Virus record (IMG/VR): IMGVR_UViG_2537561604_000012
Origin: a virus
Taxonomy: Duplodnaviria; Heunggongvirae; Uroviricota; Caudoviricetes
Length of the DNA stretch: 30,216 bases
Direction: 5' to 3' (one strand)
Shown in pieces: positions 4,134-13,775 of this stretch. The stretch's first letter is position 1; every line of letters begins with the position of its first letter. Both the position numbers and the translations under genes were made by a program. Below the pieces are notes generated by a model. It saw only the letters and a list, made by a program, of their open reading frames with translations, was not told the origin of the DNA and searched no databases.

Positions 4134-4453
4134 AAATTCATGCGGTAAAAATTGCGCCAAAATATCTTGATGCAGTAGTGGCTGGTCAGAAAAAGGCCGA
4201 GCTGCGAAAAAACGATCGCGGGTATAAAACCGGTGATGTTCTTTCATTGTGCGAGTGGAAGCACGGGAAATACACCGGGCGAGAGTGGGCGGCAGTTATC
4301 ACCCATGTTTTGCCGGTGAATGAAATTATCGCTGATACCGAAAATTGGGTGGTTTTATCTATCCGTTCGCTGTCACCGCTTGAAGTGCTGGAATACATCA
4401 TTTCAAACGGTGTAACAGAGTCGTTAGTTGGCGGAGGTCAATATGGCCGTTAA
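4124..4453 (+). CDS. DUF3850 / ASCH-like domain protein
   Basis: From ATG 4124: [55 protein letters not shown]... matches the conserved DUF3850/ASCH pattern (K-x-FE-x-RKNDR ... GD-x-L ... E ... YTGR) as I recall it; overlaps preceding stop. Confidence 0.65.
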
Positions 4454-5303
4454 AACTCCGCTTAAATGGGTGGGCAGCAAAGCCCGCCTCATGCCTAAGC
4501 TGCGTCCGCACCTTCCAGAAGGTAAACGCCTGGTTGAACCGTTCGCAGGTTCCTGCGCCGTCATGATGAATACGGATTATGACGAGTATCTGATCGCAGA
4601 TGTGAATCCTGACCTGGTTAATCTTTATAAGGCGATGGCGTATCACACTAATGCGCTGCTGAATGAGCTGGAGATCCTGTTTTCTGCCGGTTCGTTAGGT
4701 GATGTAGAAAGCCGTGCCGTTTTCTATTACGCAGTGCGTGATGCTTTCAATCTTTCTGGTGGTAAGGCCGGTTCTGAATCTGTTGAAAATGCTGCGCGTT
4801 TCCTGTACCTGAACCGGCACTGCTTCAATGGTCTGTGTCGGTATAACCGTCGAGGCCAGTTCAACGTCCCGTTCGGTAAGTACAAAAAGCCTTATTTCCC
4901 CGCTGATGAAATCCGCGCCTTTGCTGAAAAAGCAAAACGCGCAACGTTCATTACTGCCCACTATTCAGAAACGCTTGATTTGGTTCGGGGCGGGAGTGAC
5001 GTTGTTTACTGTGATCCGCCTTATCTGACTGATGCCGACAATTTCACCGCTTACCATGAGCGCGGTTTTTCGCATATGGATCAGGGGCGGCTGGCGCGTA
5101 AACTGCGCCGTCTGGCGGAACGTGGGATTCCCGTTGTCGCGTCAAACAGCGATCTGGAAATGGTGCATTACCTGTATGCAGGGTTTGACGCCGTAAAGGT
5201 TAATGCGCCGCGTAGTGTCGGTGCGGCAGCTGCAAGCCCGAAAACGGCGGCAGAGCTGATTCTTAAATGGCCTTTACCGGCGACTTCTGAGGCCAGCGCA
5301 TGA
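4443..5303 (+). CDS. dam: DNA N6-adenine methyltransferase (Dam/D12 class)
   Basis: ATG 4443 with GGAGG 4433-4437; motifs PFAGSCAV (SAM-binding motif I) and DPPY (catalytic motif IV), [10 protein letters not shown]-terminal motif typical of Dam family. Confidence 0.85.
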
Positions 5304-7321
5304 CGCTGGCAATAAACGAACAATGCTATGCCGTTGATGCCTGGAGGCGGGAAACTTTCGCACCAGGCACACCGGCAGACGCGACTATCACAGAACGCCG
5401 CCTGTGGGCTGTAAACCCGCAGGATTATGAATGGCGATCCCGGTACCTGCATGAGATACCCGACTGGTTAGCCGGGTATTTTGGCCGTCGCTATGAAAAG
5501 CTTTTTTCTGGCCGTGACGGGCGTCGCCGTGCCAATACATTCCTGCGCAAAACAATCGGTGAGAATGTATTGCCACGTCTGCGCAAAGTGGCTGCGCGTT
5601 ACTCGCTGGCCGCTGATGCTGCTGATCTTCCTTTTGGTAAGTCGCTGGAGCGCTTGCCGTCACTAGACCGTCCTGATCTTAAAAAACTGGCTGGCCAGGT
5701 ATCTGGCTGGATTTCCCAGTCACTTTATGACTTCACCGAACAGTTTGATTCCGGCACTGACGACGCCAGAGAGCTGCATCGCCGCACTCTGGAATCTTAC
5801 CGCCATCTTTGTGCCTGTTGCCTGATGCTGAATAACCAGCCGCCGTACTGGACTGAACATGAGGCCAATGAAGGTCAACTGGAAATGCGTAAGGCGGAAT
5901 CCGGGATACTGCGCATGATGGCGCCGGAATGGTGGTACCTGCGTCTTAAACGTGCGCGTGATACGCAGCGCGAGCACATGGCCATTGCGGTGGGACAGGT
6001 GCAAAAAGCGGCCAGCGCTTATGTATCCCGCAAAACACTGGGTGAATGGATAGACCAGAAAAAGCGGAATCTGGAGTTCTTTAAAAAGTTTGATCTGCTG
6101 AATGATGAGGGGCTGCGCATTGCACTGGACAGCATGGTGCACCGCAGCGTTGCAAATCCGGCGATCCGTCGATGTGAACTAATGGTAAGAATGCGAGGGT
6201 TTGAAGATATGGCCAATGAAGAAGGGCTGGCCGGTGAGTTTTACACTATCACCGCGCCATCACGTTTCCATGCGGTTCACAGCAAAGGGGGCTTTGTATC
6301 GCAATGGGATGGAAGTACGCCGCAGGATACCCAGCGCTATTTATGCGGCGTATGGGCAAAAGCGCGTGCAGCGATCTCGCGTGCTGGTATCCATGTATTT
6401 GGGTTTCGGGTTGTTGAGCCTCACCATGACGGGACACCGCACTGGCATATGTTGCTTTTTATGCGTCCGCAGGACGTGGACACGGTACGCGATATTCTTT
6501 GTTATCACGCCAGAATTACCGATTCTGAAGAACTGCAATCTGAAAAGGCGCTGAAGGCGCGTTTTCATGTTGAAGCTATCGATCCCGCCAAAGGTTCGGC
6601 CACGGGCTACATCGCGAAATACATTTCAAAAAATATTGATGGTTTTGCGCTGGATGGTGAGCAGGACGAAGAAACCGGCGAAAACCTGCGTGATATGGCT
6701 AAGTCCGTTTCCGCGTGGGCTTCACGCTGGCGTATTCGCCAGTTTCAGCAGATTGGTGGTGCGCCGGTAACCGTCTGGCGTGAGCTGCGTCGGTTGCGGG
6801 ATCAGGTACTGACAGATCGCAGAATGGATGCGGTTCTGGCCGCTGCTGATGTCGGGGACTGGGCTGCATATACCCAGGCGCAGGGAGGTGCACTGGTTGC
6901 CCGCCGTGATCTGGTTGTTCGTCTGGCCTATGAAATTACGGAACAGGGCAACGAATACGCGGAGGACGTGCAGCGCGTACAGGGTGTTTATTCTCCTTTG
7001 ATTCCTGATTCAGAAGTTTGCACCCGTCTGGTTAAGTGGCAAAAGGTTGCGAAGTTGGCCGAAGCGCCAGCGGAGGCGGGTTTTTCTGGCGGCAACGCCG
7101 CCCCTTGGAGTTCTGTCAATAACTGTACGGAGGGGGGAACCCGCAGACGGTTAAAACTGGAATTACGCAGTCGGGGTTTTGAGGGTTCCGATGAAGAAAT
7201 AGCCATTCTCCTGCGGGGTAGTGGTTTGATATTTGGTCAGGGGGCACTGATTTACCGCAATGGGCGGTTGAAGGAAACACGAAACGAACCATTGCAGGAG
7301 CTTTGGCCGGGGTGGTTATAG
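5300..7321 (+). CDS. A: Rolling-circle replication initiator endonuclease gpA (P2 A / 186 A family)
   Basis: 673 aa; HUH-type motif PHWHMLLF and active-site tyrosine motif TGYIAKYISK; ATGA overlap with dam stop; position at end of early operon. Confidence 0.9.
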   Translation: MTLAINEQCYAVDAWRRETFAPGTPADATITERRLWAVNPQDYEWRSRYLHEIPDWLAGYFGRRYEKLFSGRDGRRRANTFLRKTIGENVLPRLRKVAARYSLAADAADLPFGKSLERLPSLDRPDLKKLAGQVSGWISQSLYDFTEQFDSGTDDARELHRRTLESYRHLCACCLMLNNQPPYWTEHEANEGQLEMRKAESGILRMMAPEWWYLRLKRARDTQREHMAIAVGQVQKAASAYVSRKTLGEWIDQKKRNLEFFKKFDLLNDEGLRIALDSMVHRSVANPAIRRCELMVRMRGFEDMANEEGLAGEFYTITAPSRFHAVHSKGGFVSQWDGSTPQDTQRYLCGVWAKARAAISRAGIHVFGFRVVEPHHDGTPHWHMLLFMRPQDVDTVRDILCYHARITDSEELQSEKALKARFHVEAIDPAKGSATGYIAKYISKNIDGFALDGEQDEETGENLRDMAKSVSAWASRWRIRQFQQIGGAPVTVWRELRRLRDQVLTDRRMDAVLAAADVGDWAAYTQAQGGALVARRDLVVRLAYEITEQGNEYAEDVQRVQGVYSPLIPDSEVCTRLVKWQKVAKLAEAPAEAGFSGGNAAPWSSVNNCTEGGTRRRLKLELRSRGFEGSDEEIAILLRGSGLIFGQGALIYRNGRLKETRNEPLQELWPGWL

Positions 7322-7398
7322 GTGTGCATGTGTGTGTAACACATTCATTTGTCAGTAGATGGCAGGAAATTAAATTTCACAATTCGTGCTTTAAGGTG

Positions 7399-7418
7399 TA
7401 CTGTATGTATATCCAGTT
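7399..7418 (+). promoter_or_regulatory. LexA-box-like SOS operator TACTGTATGTATATCCAGTT (CTGT-N8-CCAG) upstream of small ORF
   Basis: Matches LexA consensus TACTGT-(AT)4-ACAGTA at left half-site perfectly and right half with one core mismatch (CCAG vs ACAG); AT-rich centre; 22 nt upstream of ATG 7441. Confidence 0.5.
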
Positions 7419-7440
7419 ATTTATTGCTTGTGGGGGCTAA

Positions 7441-7647
7441 ATGGATCTTTTGGAGGCGTCGGCACAGCTGGAACGCATTGAGTTATTGGCCAAAATTGCC
7501 CATGTTTACGAAAGTAACCAGAGAGAAAAAACAATCGCTTTGGCCTGGATTGGAGAGCTTGCGGGAGAGGTTCGCGAAATGGTTAAAAAGGAAGGGCAAC
7601 GCCCCCAGAATGGGGGCATTTCAGGCGGCGGGAGTCGCTTTCAGTAG
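7441..7647 (+). CDS. Small hypothetical protein (68 aa) downstream of SOS-box-like site; possible Tum-type antirepressor analogue
   Basis: ATG 7441 preceded by GGGGG; function inferred only from position (186 has LexA-controlled tum after gene A). 3' end overlaps convergent ogr-like gene and hairpin 7601-7617. Confidence 0.4.
   Translation: MDLLEASAQLERIELLAKIAHVYESNQREKTIALAWIGELAGEVREMVKKEGQRPQNGGISGGGSRFQ
7601..7617 (-). terminator. GC-rich hairpin GCCCCCA-gaa-TGGGGGC just downstream of ogr-like stop; candidate terminator of P-Q-ogr transcript
   Basis: 7-bp perfect stem; on minus strand followed within ~12 nt by TTTTT (plus 7584-7588 aaaaa). U-tract not adjacent so moderate. Confidence 0.35.
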
Positions 7648-7890
7648 GTCTAATGCCATCTGGCGCTGATCGGGTGAAAGTGCATTCAGTATTTTTTGCA
7701 CCATCGCATCACCCGCTTTAGCGCTGGGGCTGAGAGTGTGGGAGAACGTCAGATTCATAACAAACGTGTGGCCACACTCAACATCTGAACAGGCGCAGTA
7801 AATATCCGCAATTTGCCGGTGCTTCCTGTTCGTTTTACGAATAACAGCCTTTGAGCCGCATTCCGGGCATTCGATTTTCAGAACTCGCAT
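7621..7890 (-). CDS. ogr: Ogr/Delta-family zinc-finger late-gene transcriptional activator
   Basis: From ATG 7888-7890 (RBS GGAG 8 nt upstream): MRVLKIECPECGS...IYCACSDVECGHTF gives C-x2-C-x20-C-x-C-x4-C with Y-x-C...C-x-x-TF, as in P2 Ogr (C-x2-C-x22-C-x4-C ... ATF). Alternative upstream ATG 7942-7944 overlaps Q stop (ATGA). Confidence 0.75.
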   Translation of the reverse strand: MRVLKIECPECGSKAVIRKTNRKHRQIADIYCACSDVECGHTFVMNLTFSHTLSPSAKAGDAMVQKILNALSPDQRQMALDLLKATPAA

Positions 7891-7940
7891 ATTCCATGCT
7901 CCAGCTGTTAAATGATGCCTGGATTTTAGCCTGTTTCGCC

Positions 7941-9002
7941 TCATGCCGCACCCTTATCCGTTGATTCTGTGTAACTTAAATCAAAGTTAAGGTGTAGCCT
8001 TTCCGGTATTTCGGGATCATTGTTAACGGCCAGCATAAAACGGCGCTGGATGGGGGCAATTTCGCTTTTCTTGTAAATGCGTTCAGCCTTTTCAACATCC
8101 CCCAGTCCGGCAGTGTTCTGCGGGACAATACCGGCGAGGCCAGCAGGGAAACGGTGAGCGTTCAGAATGTCCTGGGCGCTGATGTTCTTGATGTTGGCAA
8201 ATTCATCCTTTGCGGAAATATCCCCCATTTCAATGAATTTGATGGCGTCGCCGTCTCCACCGGGAATGTTTACAAGGATGGTGGAGAAGTTACCGATCCC
8301 TTTGCTGTCACGCAGCTGCTGTTCAATTTCTTCCTCCATTTCGTCCGTCATGCTGGGATCGCGGGTATAAAGAATACCGCCTGTGTGCGCACCATTGTGG
8401 TAATAGCGGCGTCGGAAAATGACCGCTTCACTGTTAAGTAACGCGGAATGCACACCGCCTATGTAGTCCGGCAGCCCGTAGATATGCTGTTGCGGGTCAT
8501 ACATTTTGATGAAGATAATATCTTCTTCTGGCCATACCTGCGGTTCCCCTTCCTGTAACACCACGTAGTCACCAGGCTTATCCAGGGCGTTATCTCTGAC
8601 TTTGCGGCGGCGAATATACAGACCGGGCAAGGGTTCAAGTGCGATCACGTCACCCCAGCCGTTACGAATTTTGGCAATCGCAATATCCCCAAAGGTTATA
8701 TAGTCAAACGCTGCCGCTTCCAGCTGGTCGTGAATAAGCCCGCCCCCCTGGTAGTCTGAAACAATCATGTTTTTACGGGCGTGAATGATGCCGCCGTGCT
8801 GACCGTTAAGATTAATCAGTTGCGCGAGTGCCAGCCGGTCAATCGGCTGGGTGAAGTGATCGGCGGCATTGTCGTACCAGATATCACGGTAATCTGTGCC
8901 GGTAGTCAGAACTGGTTCAGGTTTGCCGAATGTGATAATGCTCATCTTTTTTGATTTGTCGCCGCGCTGGTCGCGCTTAACAAAGCGTTTCTTTTTACTC
9001 AT
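7941..9002 (-). CDS. Q: Portal (capsid portal vertex) protein, P2 gpQ-like
   Basis: 353 aa; immediately downstream of and overlapping (ATGA) the large terminase gene; size matches P2 Q (~344 aa). Confidence 0.8.
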   Translation of the reverse strand: MSKKKRFVKRDQRGDKSKKMSIITFGKPEPVLTTGTDYRDIWYDNAADHFTQPIDRLALAQLINLNGQHGGIIHARKNMIVSDYQGGGLIHDQLEAAAFDYITFGDIAIAKIRNGWGDVIALEPLPGLYIRRRKVRDNALDKPGDYVVLQEGEPQVWPEEDIIFIKMYDPQQHIYGLPDYIGGVHSALLNSEAVIFRRRYYHNGAHTGGILYTRDPSMTDEMEEEIEQQLRDSKGIGNFSTILVNIPGGDGDAIKFIEMGDISAKDEFANIKNISAQDILNAHRFPAGLAGIVPQNTAGLGDVEKAERIYKKSEIAPIQRRFMLAVNNDPEIPERLHLNFDLSYTESTDKGAA

Positions 9003-10774
9003 GCTGCCTCTTTCCTTACACCCCAGCGGGATTTAGGTTTGTTTTCATAATTAAGGGGTTCGTTATGCAGACCGTGGGTAATCGCCCAGAACGCCTCCGC
9101 GTGGCCGGTATCCTGGCTGCGGTCAGCGACAAACGTCATGGCGTTGCCGCTTTGTGTGGTGGTTCGGCGCACAGACATAAAGCTGGCGGCGATCTCTTTC
9201 AGGTTTTTATCCCACTCAATACGCTGGCTTTCCACCACGTCCACCGCTTTCAGTACCAGCTTATTTTTGGTGTTCAGGTCGTAACGAATAGGGACGGCCA
9301 CGCGCATGGCAAAATGCTGAATGTTGTCAAAAACACCCTGGCCAATGCCGGTAACGTCCACCCCCAGATATGTGAAGTTGTATTTTTTGAACAACTGCTC
9401 GATCTGTTTTGCCTGGTACCGGAAGTTCATGCCTTTCCAGTAAATCACCTTCAGAACGCGGAACTTCTCCACGGCGAGCATCGGTGGGGCGATGATGACA
9501 AAACAGGACAAATCCCCGCTGCGAGCCGGGTCAAAGCCGCCCCACACTGGCCTGTCACCGAATGGCCGCGCTGCATCTGGGTTGTGATCCTGCCAGGTGT
9601 CGATTTCAACGCCGCAGGCTTCCAGGTCGGAAAAGCTGAAAACGGAATCTTTGCTGTCAACGAACACGCACATATAGAGCATGTTAAAAGTGGCGTCGTT
9701 GTAGCGGTTGCGAAGTTTCTCGATGTTCGCCAGGTTGAAACCGCCCGCAATGGCATCTTCCATCGTAATGACGTAGCGCCATTGCCCATCCGGGCAGAGT
9801 CGCCCGCCGTCACGCATTTCGTTAAAGGAAGGAAACTTAATGGCCGCACGTTTTTTACTGCCCTGTTTCCACTCATCGCCCGTCCAGAACGGGTACGCCT
9901 GGTGCGTTTTTGCCGATGGCGTTGAAAAATAGGTGGTACGCCACTTGTCATGCGTGGCCATTGCGCTGGCCACTTCGTTAAGTTTTGCAAAGTTTGGTAC
10001 CCAGAAATATTCGTCACAGTACAGGTGGCCACTGTAGGACTGGGCGGTGTTTTTGTTGGTGGAGAGAAAACGCAGTTCTGCGCCGTTGCTTAAGCGGATC
10101 GGGTTACCGGTCAGCGTAATACCGAAATACTGCTCTGCAATATTCACGATGTAAGACCGGAACACTTCAGCCTGAGCCTTTGACGCTGACAGAAAGATTT
10201 GCGGATCGCCGGTCATCACCGCGTTTTCAAACGCTTCAAACGCAAAATACCAGGTCGCACCGATCTGGCGGCTTTTCAGGATATTCCTGACAAGCTGGCC
10301 AATGTTATTGCGCAGGTGTTTCTGATATTCAAAAAGATGTTCCTCAGCCCATGCGTCAAAGTCCTCCTGCGTCAGCGAGGTAATATCGTTTTTCTTGTAC
10401 TTCCGTTTGCTGCGCGGTTCGTCGTCATTGTTGTCCCGCGCAGCTGCTTGCCCGGAACTCTGACCGCTGGCCATTTTCTCTTTGTGTTTATTACTCTGCG
10501 CACGCAGTTTCGTGGCATGAGCAATGAGCATGTCCATTTCTTTCAGGTCGAGATCGGTTTTGTTATCGCGGCTGGCCAGCAGTTGGTAACGGCGTTCAAT
10601 CGCTTCCTCTGTGCTTTCAAAACTGAGCAAATCCGCCCAGCTGTATTTCTCCGCCCAGTAGTAAACGATCCGCGCATTCGGCAGATTTAATTCAGATGCG
10701 ATTTCCTTTGGCGTATAGCGGCGCAGATAAAGTGCGCGAACAACGCCTTTTAATTCTTCAGAGTATTTAGCCAT
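8999..10774 (-). CDS. P: Terminase large (ATPase) subunit, P2 gpP-like
   Basis: 591 aa (P2 P ~590 aa); Walker A-like KSRQIGAT and Walker B-like LYCDEYF; divergent from scaffold gene as in P2. Confidence 0.9.
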   Translation of the reverse strand: MAKYSEELKGVVRALYLRRYTPKEIASELNLPNARIVYYWAEKYSWADLLSFESTEEAIERRYQLLASRDNKTDLDLKEMDMLIAHATKLRAQSNKHKEKMASGQSSGQAAARDNNDDEPRSKRKYKKNDITSLTQEDFDAWAEEHLFEYQKHLRNNIGQLVRNILKSRQIGATWYFAFEAFENAVMTGDPQIFLSASKAQAEVFRSYIVNIAEQYFGITLTGNPIRLSNGAELRFLSTNKNTAQSYSGHLYCDEYFWVPNFAKLNEVASAMATHDKWRTTYFSTPSAKTHQAYPFWTGDEWKQGSKKRAAIKFPSFNEMRDGGRLCPDGQWRYVITMEDAIAGGFNLANIEKLRNRYNDATFNMLYMCVFVDSKDSVFSFSDLEACGVEIDTWQDHNPDAARPFGDRPVWGGFDPARSGDLSCFVIIAPPMLAVEKFRVLKVIYWKGMNFRYQAKQIEQLFKKYNFTYLGVDVTGIGQGVFDNIQHFAMRVAVPIRYDLNTKNKLVLKAVDVVESQRIEWDKNLKEIAASFMSVRRTTTQSGNAMTFVADRSQDTGHAEAFWAITHGLHNEPLNYENKPKSRWGVRKEAA

Positions 10775-10826
10775 GCGGATAATTATGCCGTGGCTGTGAT
10801 GAAAAAACGGTGGTGTTAATTCGTGT

Positions 10827-10855
10827 CTGTTCGGTAAAGCGTTATAACCGAACTG
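10827..10855. promoter_or_regulatory. Dyad-symmetry element GTTCGGT-N11-ACCGAAC in divergent P/O late promoter region; candidate late-activator (Ogr-like) binding site
   Basis: Perfect 7-bp inverted repeat at 10829-10835 / 10847-10853 in 161-bp intergenic region between divergent P and O genes. Does not fit the canonical TGT-N12-ACA spacing exactly. Confidence 0.35.
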
Positions 10856-10935
10856 TTCAGAATAAAGCGTAATGCGGTGGCGGTTTTATTTGGCAATAAT
10901 TGATTTGCAGCGTCAGGGAGTGGAACAGGGGGGAT

Positions 10936-11739
10936 ATGTCACATTTAAAAACTGACTGGCTGTGTGTTGCTACTGAAGGGGATACCGTTGACGGCAGGGT
11001 AATTAAACGGCAGTGGATCATTGATATGGGGGAAACCTATGACTATAGCCACTATGTCGCTTTAATCTGGCCAGAACATGAGGATGATTGCGGGAATTTT
11101 GGTGAAGTGCTGGAAGCCACCTGGAATGATGGTGAAGATGGACTGGCACGGTTATATGTCAGCCTTTGCCCGAATATGCGTCTGATTTTCGCAAATCATG
11201 AAGATCAGCTTTTGTTCTTCTCCATTGAGCCGGAAGAAAACTGGCGCGGTAGCGGGCGTACTTACCTGAAAGGGCTGGCGGTAACAGATACACCTGCCAG
11301 CGTTGGCACCACACGGCTGCGTTTTAGTAGTCGGCGCAATAAATTAACAAAGCAGGGATATTACAGTTGTGTAATTTCCCGTGACGGAAAAATTAAACAG
11401 GAAGCAAGAATGAAGAACTGGCAGAAACGGTTTGGTATTAAGCCAAAGTTTGAAGATGAAACGCCACAGGATAATCCTGCCCCGGATGAAGATAAATTAC
11501 AGGCGCTTGCCAATGTAGTGAACGATCTGGAAGCGCGAGTGGCGAAAATTGAAAATCAACTGAATGACGTTCAGGGTGATGTTGACACAATCGCTGAAGT
11601 GGTGGATACGCAGGAATTTGCGGCAATCCGCGATAATGCAAAAGAAATCGTAACCCGCTTTAACGATCTGGGTAATAAAAACACCCGTACACCGGGGCGT
11701 ACTATTAAAGATAAAGCCGGGAAATTTAATTTCCTGTAA
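10936..11739 (+). CDS. O: Capsid scaffolding protein, P2 gpO-like
   Basis: First ATG of ORF (track start 10900 is TTG); GGGGGG/GGGAG upstream; position divergent from P and upstream of major capsid gene; C-terminal coiled-coil-like segment. Confidence 0.75.
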   Translation: MSHLKTDWLCVATEGDTVDGRVIKRQWIIDMGETYDYSHYVALIWPEHEDDCGNFGEVLEATWNDGEDGLARLYVSLCPNMRLIFANHEDQLLFFSIEPEENWRGSGRTYLKGLAVTDTPASVGTTRLRFSSRRNKLTKQGYYSCVISRDGKIKQEARMKNWQKRFGIKPKFEDETPQDNPAPDEDKLQALANVVNDLEARVAKIENQLNDVQGDVDTIAEVVDTQEFAAIRDNAKEIVTRFNDLGNKNTRTPGRTIKDKAGKFNFL

Positions 11740-13538: not shown

Positions 13539-13775
13539 ATGAAAGAAAGCCATTTACAAGGTGCACATACCCATACCGTGGGGGCACATAGCCATTCTCT
13601 GGGTGGTGCACATACCCATACCGTGGGGGCACATAGCCATTCTCTGGGTGGTGCACATACCCATACCGTGGGGGCACATAGCCATTCTCTGGGTGGTGCA
13701 CATACCCATACCGTGGGTGCACATAGCCATTCTCTGAGTGGTGCACATACGCACACTTTTAATACTGAGCAGTAA
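13539..13775 (+). CDS. His-rich tandem-repeat mini-protein (78 aa; 4.4 x 15-aa unit GAHTHTVGAHSHSLG)
   Basis: ATG 13539 with AAGGA 9 nt upstream, co-oriented in head operon; almost entirely HxH-containing repeats. Both strands are open across the repeat, so coding status is uncertain. Confidence 0.4.
   Translation: MKESHLQGAHTHTVGAHSHSLGGAHTHTVGAHSHSLGGAHTHTVGAHSHSLGGAHTHTVGAHSHSLSGAHTHTFNTEQ
13560..13760. repeat. 45-bp direct tandem repeat, 3 identical copies + 1 copy with 2 substitutions + partial copy
   Basis: Unit ggtgcacatacccataccgtgggggcacatagccattctctgggt at 13560-13604, 13605-13649, 13650-13694 (identical), 13695-13739 (2 mismatches), partial from 13740. Confidence 0.95.

Follow-up and report, generated by a model that had tools for sequence, protein, structure and literature searches.

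A putative Ogr-type late activator gene behind the P-Q packaging operon of an ESSI-2-type prophage, with signs of two routes of expression

How is a late-gene activator expressed when its own gene lies behind one of the operons that it is presumed to switch on? The question is raised by a small gene for an Ogr-type zinc-finger protein in IMG/VR virus record IMGVR_UViG_2537561604_000012, a Caudoviricetes sequence of 30,216 nucleotides (nt) that is called the window below. Here the ogr-like gene follows directly on the portal gene Q, and an earlier note on this DNA had read the placement as a departure from P2 that would make the late activator part of a late operon, with a possible positive feedback loop. 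Our analysis suggests that the gene probably encodes the late activator of an HP1/K139/ESSI-2-type prophage, and that it would be expressed in two ways, from a promoter of its own and by read-through from P and Q.

The ogr-like gene and two possible routes to its expression

The leftward late operon begins with P, the gene for the terminase large subunit (8999-10774, minus strand; Pfam Terminase_6N, E-value 1.8e-53, with further matches to Terminase_6C and Terminase_5, and annotated accordingly in Escherichia phage ESSI2_ev129), which overlaps the portal gene Q (7941-9002, minus strand; Pfam Phage_portal, E-value 1.1e-17, with portal annotation in relatives) by 4 nt. Directly behind Q on the same strand stands an open reading frame (ORF) of 107 codons (7621-7944). 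Its conserved core is a short form of 89 residues (7621-7890) that starts MRVLKIECPECG and is preceded by an in-frame extension of 18 codons (7891-7944), the first ATG of which (7944-7942) overlaps the TGA stop codon of Q (7943-7941), the overlap reading ATGA (7944-7941). Coordinates and Pfam matches thus bear out the description given in the earlier note, as they do its placing of the gene between the gpA-type replication gene (5300-7321, plus strand) and the head genes (O from 10936, plus strand). The ribosome-binding site that had been ascribed to the start at 7890 is likewise there, as a Shine-Dalgarno sequence GGAG (7899-7902, minus strand) that is conserved, with its ATG, in relatives.

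The encoded protein is a distant member of the broad Ogr/Delta family and no Ogr equivalog. It matches the Pfam profile Ogr_Delta (PF04606) over its full length (profile positions 1-47) with an E-value of 9.3e-20 and a score of 70.7 bits, the gathering cut-off being 26.3 bits. The cysteines C8, C11, C34 and C39 are invariant and align with C4, C7, C30 and C35 of P2 Ogr and with those of 186 B, so that the spacing CX2CX22CX4C is identical in the three proteins. Membership of the Ogr/Delta zinc-finger family, without which the proposal would have lost its basis, was thus upheld by both profile and alignment. Across 37 relatives the coding pattern of the core is strong (column entropy of 0.34, 0.12 and 1.19 at the three codon positions), and we therefore take the ORF to be a real gene and no chance reading frame. 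Our scan of the ORFs of the early region and the junction brought up no second Ogr-type gene.

Transcripts entering P could reach this gene. No terminator-like site was found on the minus strand between Q and the ogr-like gene, the RNA structure at the Q-ogr junction was no different from that of shuffled sequences (z 0.32), and across relatives the gap folded with a mean minimum free energy (MFE) of -10.2 kcal/mol vs a background of -10.6 kcal/mol. Directly 3' of the ogr stop codon there is a GC-rich hairpin of 10 bp (7598-7620, minus strand; MFE -17.1 kcal/mol, z -2.55), which we presume to end the P-Q-ogr transcript as well as that of ogr by itself. By our reading of the folds a hairpin with a U-run stands behind the ogr stop in most of 38 relatives, and as it does so with sequences that differ between clades, a conserved function is indicated. 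In this the arrangement is that of ogr and B: the gene directly adjoins the end of a late operon on the same strand, and no terminator intervenes. Given this gap, the hairpin after the gene and the conservation of the overlapping ATG, read-through from P(P), the predicted promoter of P, and positive feedback are plausible; that part of the original claim stands, while its novelty does not, P2 and 186 being alike in this respect.

The start codons bear on whether such read-through would be used. We aligned 37 unique portal-linked sequences without gaps at the MRV start, and found an in-frame ATG at codon -18 in 32 of them and at -17 or -14 in four more, so that the overlap with the Q stop that had been pointed out in the window is a conserved feature of relatives that have Q. 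This ATG overlaps or abuts the Q stop in three geometries (ATGA, TAATG and TGATG), behind several different last codons of Q. The frame of the extension is open in 37/37, another frame having stops in 11/37, and the only indel seen in the spacer is one of 6 nt, in Salmonella phage SI7. Where the Ogr-like gene occurs without a portal gene (nine loci, described below), eight loci have no in-frame ATG at that position, and the remaining one has an ATG five codons further upstream. The codon periodicity of the extension is weak (0.90/0.84/1.12) and resembles that of the coding tail of Q (1.16/1.07/1.40).

Some of the same data would fit a simpler arrangement in which transcripts from P and Q end before ogr, for example by Rho-dependent termination, so that the 89-residue protein is the sole product and the overlapping ATG is incidental. 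The strong Shine-Dalgarno sequence and ATG at 7890, a -10-like hexamer that lies downstream of the upstream ATG, the poor conservation of the extension as protein, the weakness of the open-frame statistic given the relatedness of the sequences, and the annotation of the short form in ESSI2_ev129 can all be read in this way. We nevertheless consider it unlikely, since an intrinsic terminator is missing between Q and ogr while most relatives have one directly behind ogr, the ATG persists in three overlap geometries and with several last Q codons, the in-frame start is lost in 8/9 of the portal-less clusters, the spacing is fixed except for the one 6-nt indel, and the P2 and 186 records show read-through into ogr and B.

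For the short start there speak, besides the conserved Shine-Dalgarno sequence and ATG, the candidate -10 downstream of the long-form ATG and the little-conserved protein sequence of the extension, the stop codons that stand just upstream of MRVF in Vibrio phage K139 and Aeromonas phage phiO18P; in these two phages and in most portal-less clusters the short start is the only one possible. With moderate confidence only, we suggest that both starts may be used, on different transcripts, the short form being the essential core. A further step, which we put forward tentatively and regard as rather doubtful, would be a time-split switch between two isoforms, in which the internal promoter gives the protein of 89 residues early, and read-through with reinitiation at the ATGA gives late a protein of 107 residues with a basic extension. 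Such a switch is supported by the retention of the overlapping ATG in loci with Q and by its absence, as an in-frame start, from eight of the nine portal-less clusters. If the switch exists, the activity of the 107-residue form could be a different one, or coupling could instead serve just to have the spacer translated, which would allow the late transcript to extend into ogr.

The most conserved non-coding features of the 37-sequence alignment are a TAAAAT hexamer, a TG upstream of it, the Shine-Dalgarno sequence and the ATG at -54, and the first two suggest a promoter within the end of Q and the spacer. TAAAAT (7923-7928, minus strand; -38 to -33 relative to the short start) is a candidate -10 with a predicted transcription start near 7916, and is identical in 36/37 of the unique relatives. 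GTGCGG (7946-7951, minus strand), which lies within the final codons of Q at a distance of 17 nt upstream from TAAAAT, is a weak candidate -35 of the form nTGnnn, the TG of which (-60/-59) is again found in 36/37. The codons that cover the hexamer vary (CTA, TTA, GTA or ATA for L, V or I; AAA; and TCC, TCG, TAT, TTA or TTT for S, Y, L or F), and the T of the TG falls on the third position of codons in Q that specify Gly, Ser, Asp or Cys; as the codons change amino acid in the one case and the T stands at a third position in the other, the constraint appears to act on the nucleotides. From this we infer that nTGnnn-N17-TAAAAT (7951-7923) is a weak promoter of the sigma-70 type. The hexamer ends 33 nt before the ATG in the window, and the same hexamer ends 35 nt before the ATG of P2 ogr. 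A transcript from this candidate promoter would carry only the start at 7890. Also in favour of a separate promoter is that the Ogr-like gene persists, together with its Shine-Dalgarno sequence and ATG, in the tail-only clusters of Xenorhabdus, which have neither P nor Q.

The opposite simplification, a pure late-operon gene that has no promoter of its own and is translated by ATGA coupling from the P-Q transcript alone, its first molecules arising from leakage of P(P), seems to us very unlikely. It would account for the ATGA overlap, for the conserved in-frame ATG with its frame open in 37/37, for the long form called by PGAP and for the absence of a flagged consensus promoter, but an activator made solely from a promoter that it must itself turn on cannot set the cascade in motion, and TAAAAT and its upstream TG are conserved at positions that are synonymous or change the amino acid. 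The conserved Shine-Dalgarno sequence and ATG at 7890 also speak against it, as do the stops upstream of MRVF that preclude coupling in K139 and phiO18P, the survival of the gene without P-Q in tail-only clusters, and the separate promoters that P2 and 186 have in the equivalent gap.

The Vibrio and Aeromonas relatives (K139, positions 4420-4503 of locus L003; phiO18P; and Aliivibrio) have a different conserved element, CTGTAyAwAAACACAG, upstream of the gene. Its distance to the -10-like hexamer that follows (TATGAT, TAAGAT or TATAAT) is 10 nt in K139 and reaches ~15 nt in the other relatives. The window lacks this element, which may serve the ogr-like promoter of those phages as an operator or activator site.

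The P/O intergenic dyad and the proposed circuit

Late activators of the P2 type bind an inverted repeat ahead of late promoters that have no good -35, and activate these by way of RNA polymerase. The intergenic region between P and O holds a perfect dyad of the form TTCGG-N13-CCGAA (TTCGGTAAAGCGTTATAACCGAA, 10830-10852), the sole perfect match in the window, and we presume this to be the site bound by the Ogr-like protein. A TTCGG-N13/14-CCGAA dyad stands at the P/O position in 24/37 of the genome loci with a linked portal gene and in seven phage records (ESSI-2, Yen324, ev239, K139 and phiO18P among them), and is absent from the complete genomes of P2 and 186. As the activator site we also tried TGT-N12-ACA, the type found in P2, 186 and P4, and rejected it, there being five matches in the window vs 8.2 expected and none in the P/O region.

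The dyad is flanked by two -10-like sequences at matching distances: CATAAT (10782-10787, minus strand), a candidate -10 of P(P), has its last T 59 nt from the dyad centre, and ATAAT (10896-10900, plus strand), a candidate -10 of P(O), lies 59 nt from the centre on the other side, as its mirror image. On the P side ATAAT ends 58-60 nt from the dyad centre in 32/32 of the enteric dyad sites listed, and on the O side ATAAT or ATACT ends 59 nt from it in the 13/13 sites with sequence reaching that far. The spacing being equal on both sides, one dyad appears to serve two mirror-image promoters. The mirror-symmetric pattern of dyad and ATAAT is kept across prophages of the Enterobacterales; K139 and phiO18P have the dyad alone. 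The candidate -10 of P(P) ends only 7 nt before the ATG of P and there is no Shine-Dalgarno sequence there, so that the terminase mRNA of this subclade is predicted to be leaderless or nearly so. Relatives from Xenorhabdus and of the ev239 type have the same distance from -10 to dyad but a P leader of 38-45 nt with a Shine-Dalgarno sequence.

The nine portal-less loci, eight from Xenorhabdus and one other, encode an Ogr-like protein with no portal gene within 3 kb. In the two that we inspected a host gene resembling urea carboxylase lies upstream and gpR lies downstream, and one of the two also has DUF2586 and HP1-Orf24 tail genes, a content that fits tail-only, tailocin-like clusters. The dyad occurs downstream of the Ogr-like gene in 6/9 of these loci. 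The co-occurrence of gene and dyad in both phage and tail-only contexts supports, without proving, recognition of the dyad by the protein, and the dyad seems to be the site that this Ogr subfamily recognizes.

Put together, these elements suggest the following course for expression from two sources. Early after induction ogr would be transcribed from its own weak promoter (7951-7923), inside the end of Q and the spacer, and give the 89-residue protein. Bound to the dyad at 10830-10852, this protein would turn on P(P) leftward and P(O) rightward. Transcripts from P(P) would run through P, Q and ogr and end at the hairpin (7620-7598), and on this long mRNA the ATG that overlaps the Q stop could couple translation of ogr to that of Q and yield the 107-residue form. 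Since no terminator stands between Q and ogr, late transcription would thereby make more activator, which amounts to positive feedback.

Several points weigh against this proposal. All of its mechanistic steps are inferred from sequence. Aligned with P2 Ogr, the protein shows no more than 21% identity (28% in a BLASTP segment of 39 residues), and its score of 16.4 bits in the NCBIfam Ogr equivalog model NF007241 falls short of the cut-off of 116, P2 Ogr itself scoring 177.6, so that an activator role has to be argued from family and context. The candidate -35 matches TTGACA at only 2/6 positions, and a consensus sigma-70 scan of 7200-11100 flagged no minus-strand promoter; for these reasons the candidate promoter may need some additional factor. 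The open frame of the extension is a weak statistic among related sequences, the null probability of an open frame being 0.71 per sequence and the independent lineages numbering ~5-13. The hairpin in the window has no adjacent U-run, its U-tract being degenerate and displaced. A search for further copies of the dyad that might serve the other late operons gave none that were convincing at two or fewer mismatches, the counts in the 30-kb window being at chance, and this single dyad leaves the control of the tail genes unexplained. Finally, the candidate operator TTCTCGAA, taken from the cI-cox region, has no copy near the ogr promoter, and CI control in the manner of 186 can therefore not be proposed here.

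That the zinc-finger protein is something other than the late activator, such as a repressor or a DNA-binding protein associated with packaging, with the dyad bound by something else, is in our view the least probable of the alternatives: the low identity to P2 Ogr, a different C-terminal half and the failed equivalog model would suit it, but the Pfam match is well above the cut-off with identical cysteine spacing, the early-region and junction ORFs scanned offer no other Ogr-type gene, gene and dyad occur together at phage P/O promoters and in tail-only clusters, and the architecture mirrors the single activator site that P2 has between pO and pP.

Distribution of the layout and other features of the window

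Is the position behind the portal gene peculiar to this phage? Over 7300-11000 the window is 97-98% identical in nucleotide sequence to the Escherichia phages ESSI2_ev129, ev040 and ev015 (Quadragintavirus) and ~80% identical to Cronobacter phage ESSI-2, and the ESSI2_ev and ESSI-2 records have the same order, with a replication gene, then regulator, portal and terminase genes on the opposite strand, and then the scaffold gene. A tblastn search with the 89-residue protein matched 144 of 50,697 phage records. P, Q and the ogr-like gene lie in this order on one strand in ESSI2_ev129, ESSI-2, ESSI2_ev239, Yersinia phage vB_YenM_324, K139, Haemophilus phage HP1, phiO18P, Pasteurella phage F108 and Pseudomonas phage phi3, and overall in at least ten genera of the Peduoviridae. 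In SI7 the regulator stands behind a fragment of the portal gene at the end of a linear record, and in Burkholderia phages KS14 and phiE202 the Ogr-like gene is found in the early operon instead.

Bacterial genomes gave a similar result. With one genome taken per species, the portal gene ends ~50 nt upstream on the same strand in 38 of 53 loci that encode a relative. Prophages of the ESSI-2/Quadragintavirus type were found in 30 of 5,426 complete Escherichia coli genomes, and in the E. coli RefSeq entries the gene is annotated as "ogr/Delta-like zinc finger family protein" with the start that overlaps the Q stop as ATGA, i.e., in the long form called by PGAP. An ogr homologue between the portal and replication endonuclease genes has moreover been described for K139 and Smhb1, with speculation about a different timing (PMC8537503). 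From this recurrence in phages and genomes and from the published description, the placement is the known norm of this branch of the Peduoviridae: the P-Q-ogr layout had already been described and is standard for P2-like phages of the HP1/K139/ESSI-2 type. It can thus no longer count as the noteworthy departure for which it was first taken. A layout shared by the relatives, together with a characterised independent promoter, was what the earlier note had named as refuting its proposal; the relatives do share the layout, and the promoter is putative in K139 (P13) and a candidate in the window.

Four records contain the Ogr-like ORF unannotated, namely those of HP1 (U24159; locus L004, 4240-4790), HP2 (NC_003315, 9329-9553), phi3 (locus L066, 2501-2755) and KS14 (locus L067, 2501-2731). 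The frame in HP1 appears to be split, the first CxxC being in one frame and the YYCAC..CGH part in another, which would point to a sequencing error or else to a genuine frameshift; the match in HP2 is unbroken.

The order of the window as a whole is that of HP1 and K139, int - cI / cox ... rep / ogr-like <- Q <- P / O N M ... tail. The P2 cos sequence (GGCGAGGCGGGGAAAGCAC, allowing up to three mismatches) had no match. In HP1-type phages cos adjoins attP and does not lie behind the portal gene (PMC2771037), and the missing match fits such a phage.

On the replication-gene side of the ogr-like gene the plus strand also carries a gene for a Dam methylase, and 3' of the replication gene stands a small conserved ORF (7441-7647, plus strand; PHROG phrog_698, E-value 2e-22; "hypothetical protein" in ESSI2_ev129 and E. 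coli). This ORF converges on the ogr-like gene, overlaps its 3' end by 27 nt and covers the hairpin too; convergent early transcription could interfere with ogr expression.

The early region is of the 186 type, with CI-like, Cox/Apl-like and CII-like genes. In its cI-cox intergenic region (1940-2060) inverted motifs, TTCGAGAA and TTCTCGAA, flank a promoter-like site TTGACA-N17-TAATCT and are likely repressor operators. Elsewhere in the window, between the genes for the small terminase subunit and head completion, an ORF of 78 codons (13539-13775, plus strand), called "tail fiber protein" in ESSI2_ev129, is taken up for the most part by 4.2 copies of a 45-nt repeat (13560-13750, 98% matches) and encodes the His-rich motif GAHTHTVGAHSHSLG.

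Comparison with known systems

The closest systems, the Escherichia ESSI2_ev phages and ESSI-2, have the same genes in the same order and differ from the window only in annotation choices, the start being annotated short in ESSI2_ev129 and long in ESSI-2 and the E. coli RefSeq genomes. K139 orf13, annotated as a "zinc-finger protein", and its counterparts in Kappa, Smhb1, phiO18P, HP1/HP2 and F108 belong to the same subfamily at 45-56% identity. They share with the window the place between the portal and replication genes, on the strand of the portal gene, and a dyad of the window's type is found between their terminase and scaffold genes. K139 differs in an extra gene, orf14, between portal and orf13, and both K139 and phiO18P differ in having stop codons just upstream of the start, so that no coupled long form is possible there.

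The result matters little beyond annotation, the layout being normal for a large P2-like branch and the feedback being as in P2 and 186. Its by-products are a testable map of promoters and terminator for prophages of the ESSI-2/Quadragintavirus type, a candidate dyad (TTCGG-N13/14-CCGAA) for this Ogr subfamily that is unlike the P2 type and is also found in the Xenorhabdus tail-only clusters, and a case in which a gene has two start codons, each of which can be assigned to a transcript of its own.

With P2 and 186 the contrast proved weaker than had been assumed, since in both of them ogr or B also sits directly behind a late operon, after D. In the P2 record (NC_001895) D (22791-23954), the last gene of the late F operon, is followed after 81 nt by ogr (24036-24254), with the -35 of Pogr at 23973-75, an annotated -10 at 23996-24002 that contains TAAAAT (23996-24001), and a terminator at 24265-24288 described as "rho-independent terminator for ogr transcript and F operon"; a single "activator binding site; pO, pP" is annotated as well. 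P2 and the window are alike in a small protein with four cysteines, encoded directly behind a late operon, and in a TAAAAT ~33-35 nt before the ATG, as part of a promoter in or near a short gap that is a candidate in the window; one terminator for both transcripts and one activator site common to the divergent P and O promoters are likewise annotated in P2 and presumed in the window. The differences lie in the host operon, which is the tail operon FETUD in P2 and the packaging operon P-Q in the window; in the gap, which in P2 is 81 nt of untranslated sequence and in the window is 50 nt, in frame with an ATG that overlaps the upstream stop; in the activator site, of the type TGT-N12-ACA in P2 as against the presumed dyad TTCGG-N13-CCGAA; and in the distance from the dyad centre to the predicted transcription starts, ~66 nt in the window vs ~55 in P2.

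The 186 record (NC_001317) has D (19373-20542), then pB (20549-20584), repressed by CI and provided with two annotated CI sites, and then B (20609-20827), with tB annotated as "termination of transcription from pB and late promoter". B is of the same family and, like the ogr-like gene, stands at the end of a late operon; its own promoter and shared terminator have a candidate and a presumed counterpart in the window. It differs in lying behind D and not behind the portal gene, and in the CI sites of pB. The comparison with 186 that had been suggested therefore confirms a different neighbour but the same logic of position. As the records of P2 and 186 place ogr and B behind a late operon, a late activator on a late transcript is the norm of the family: the feedback wiring is already annotated for both phages, and what differs here is only the host operon, P-Q in place of FETUD or J-D.

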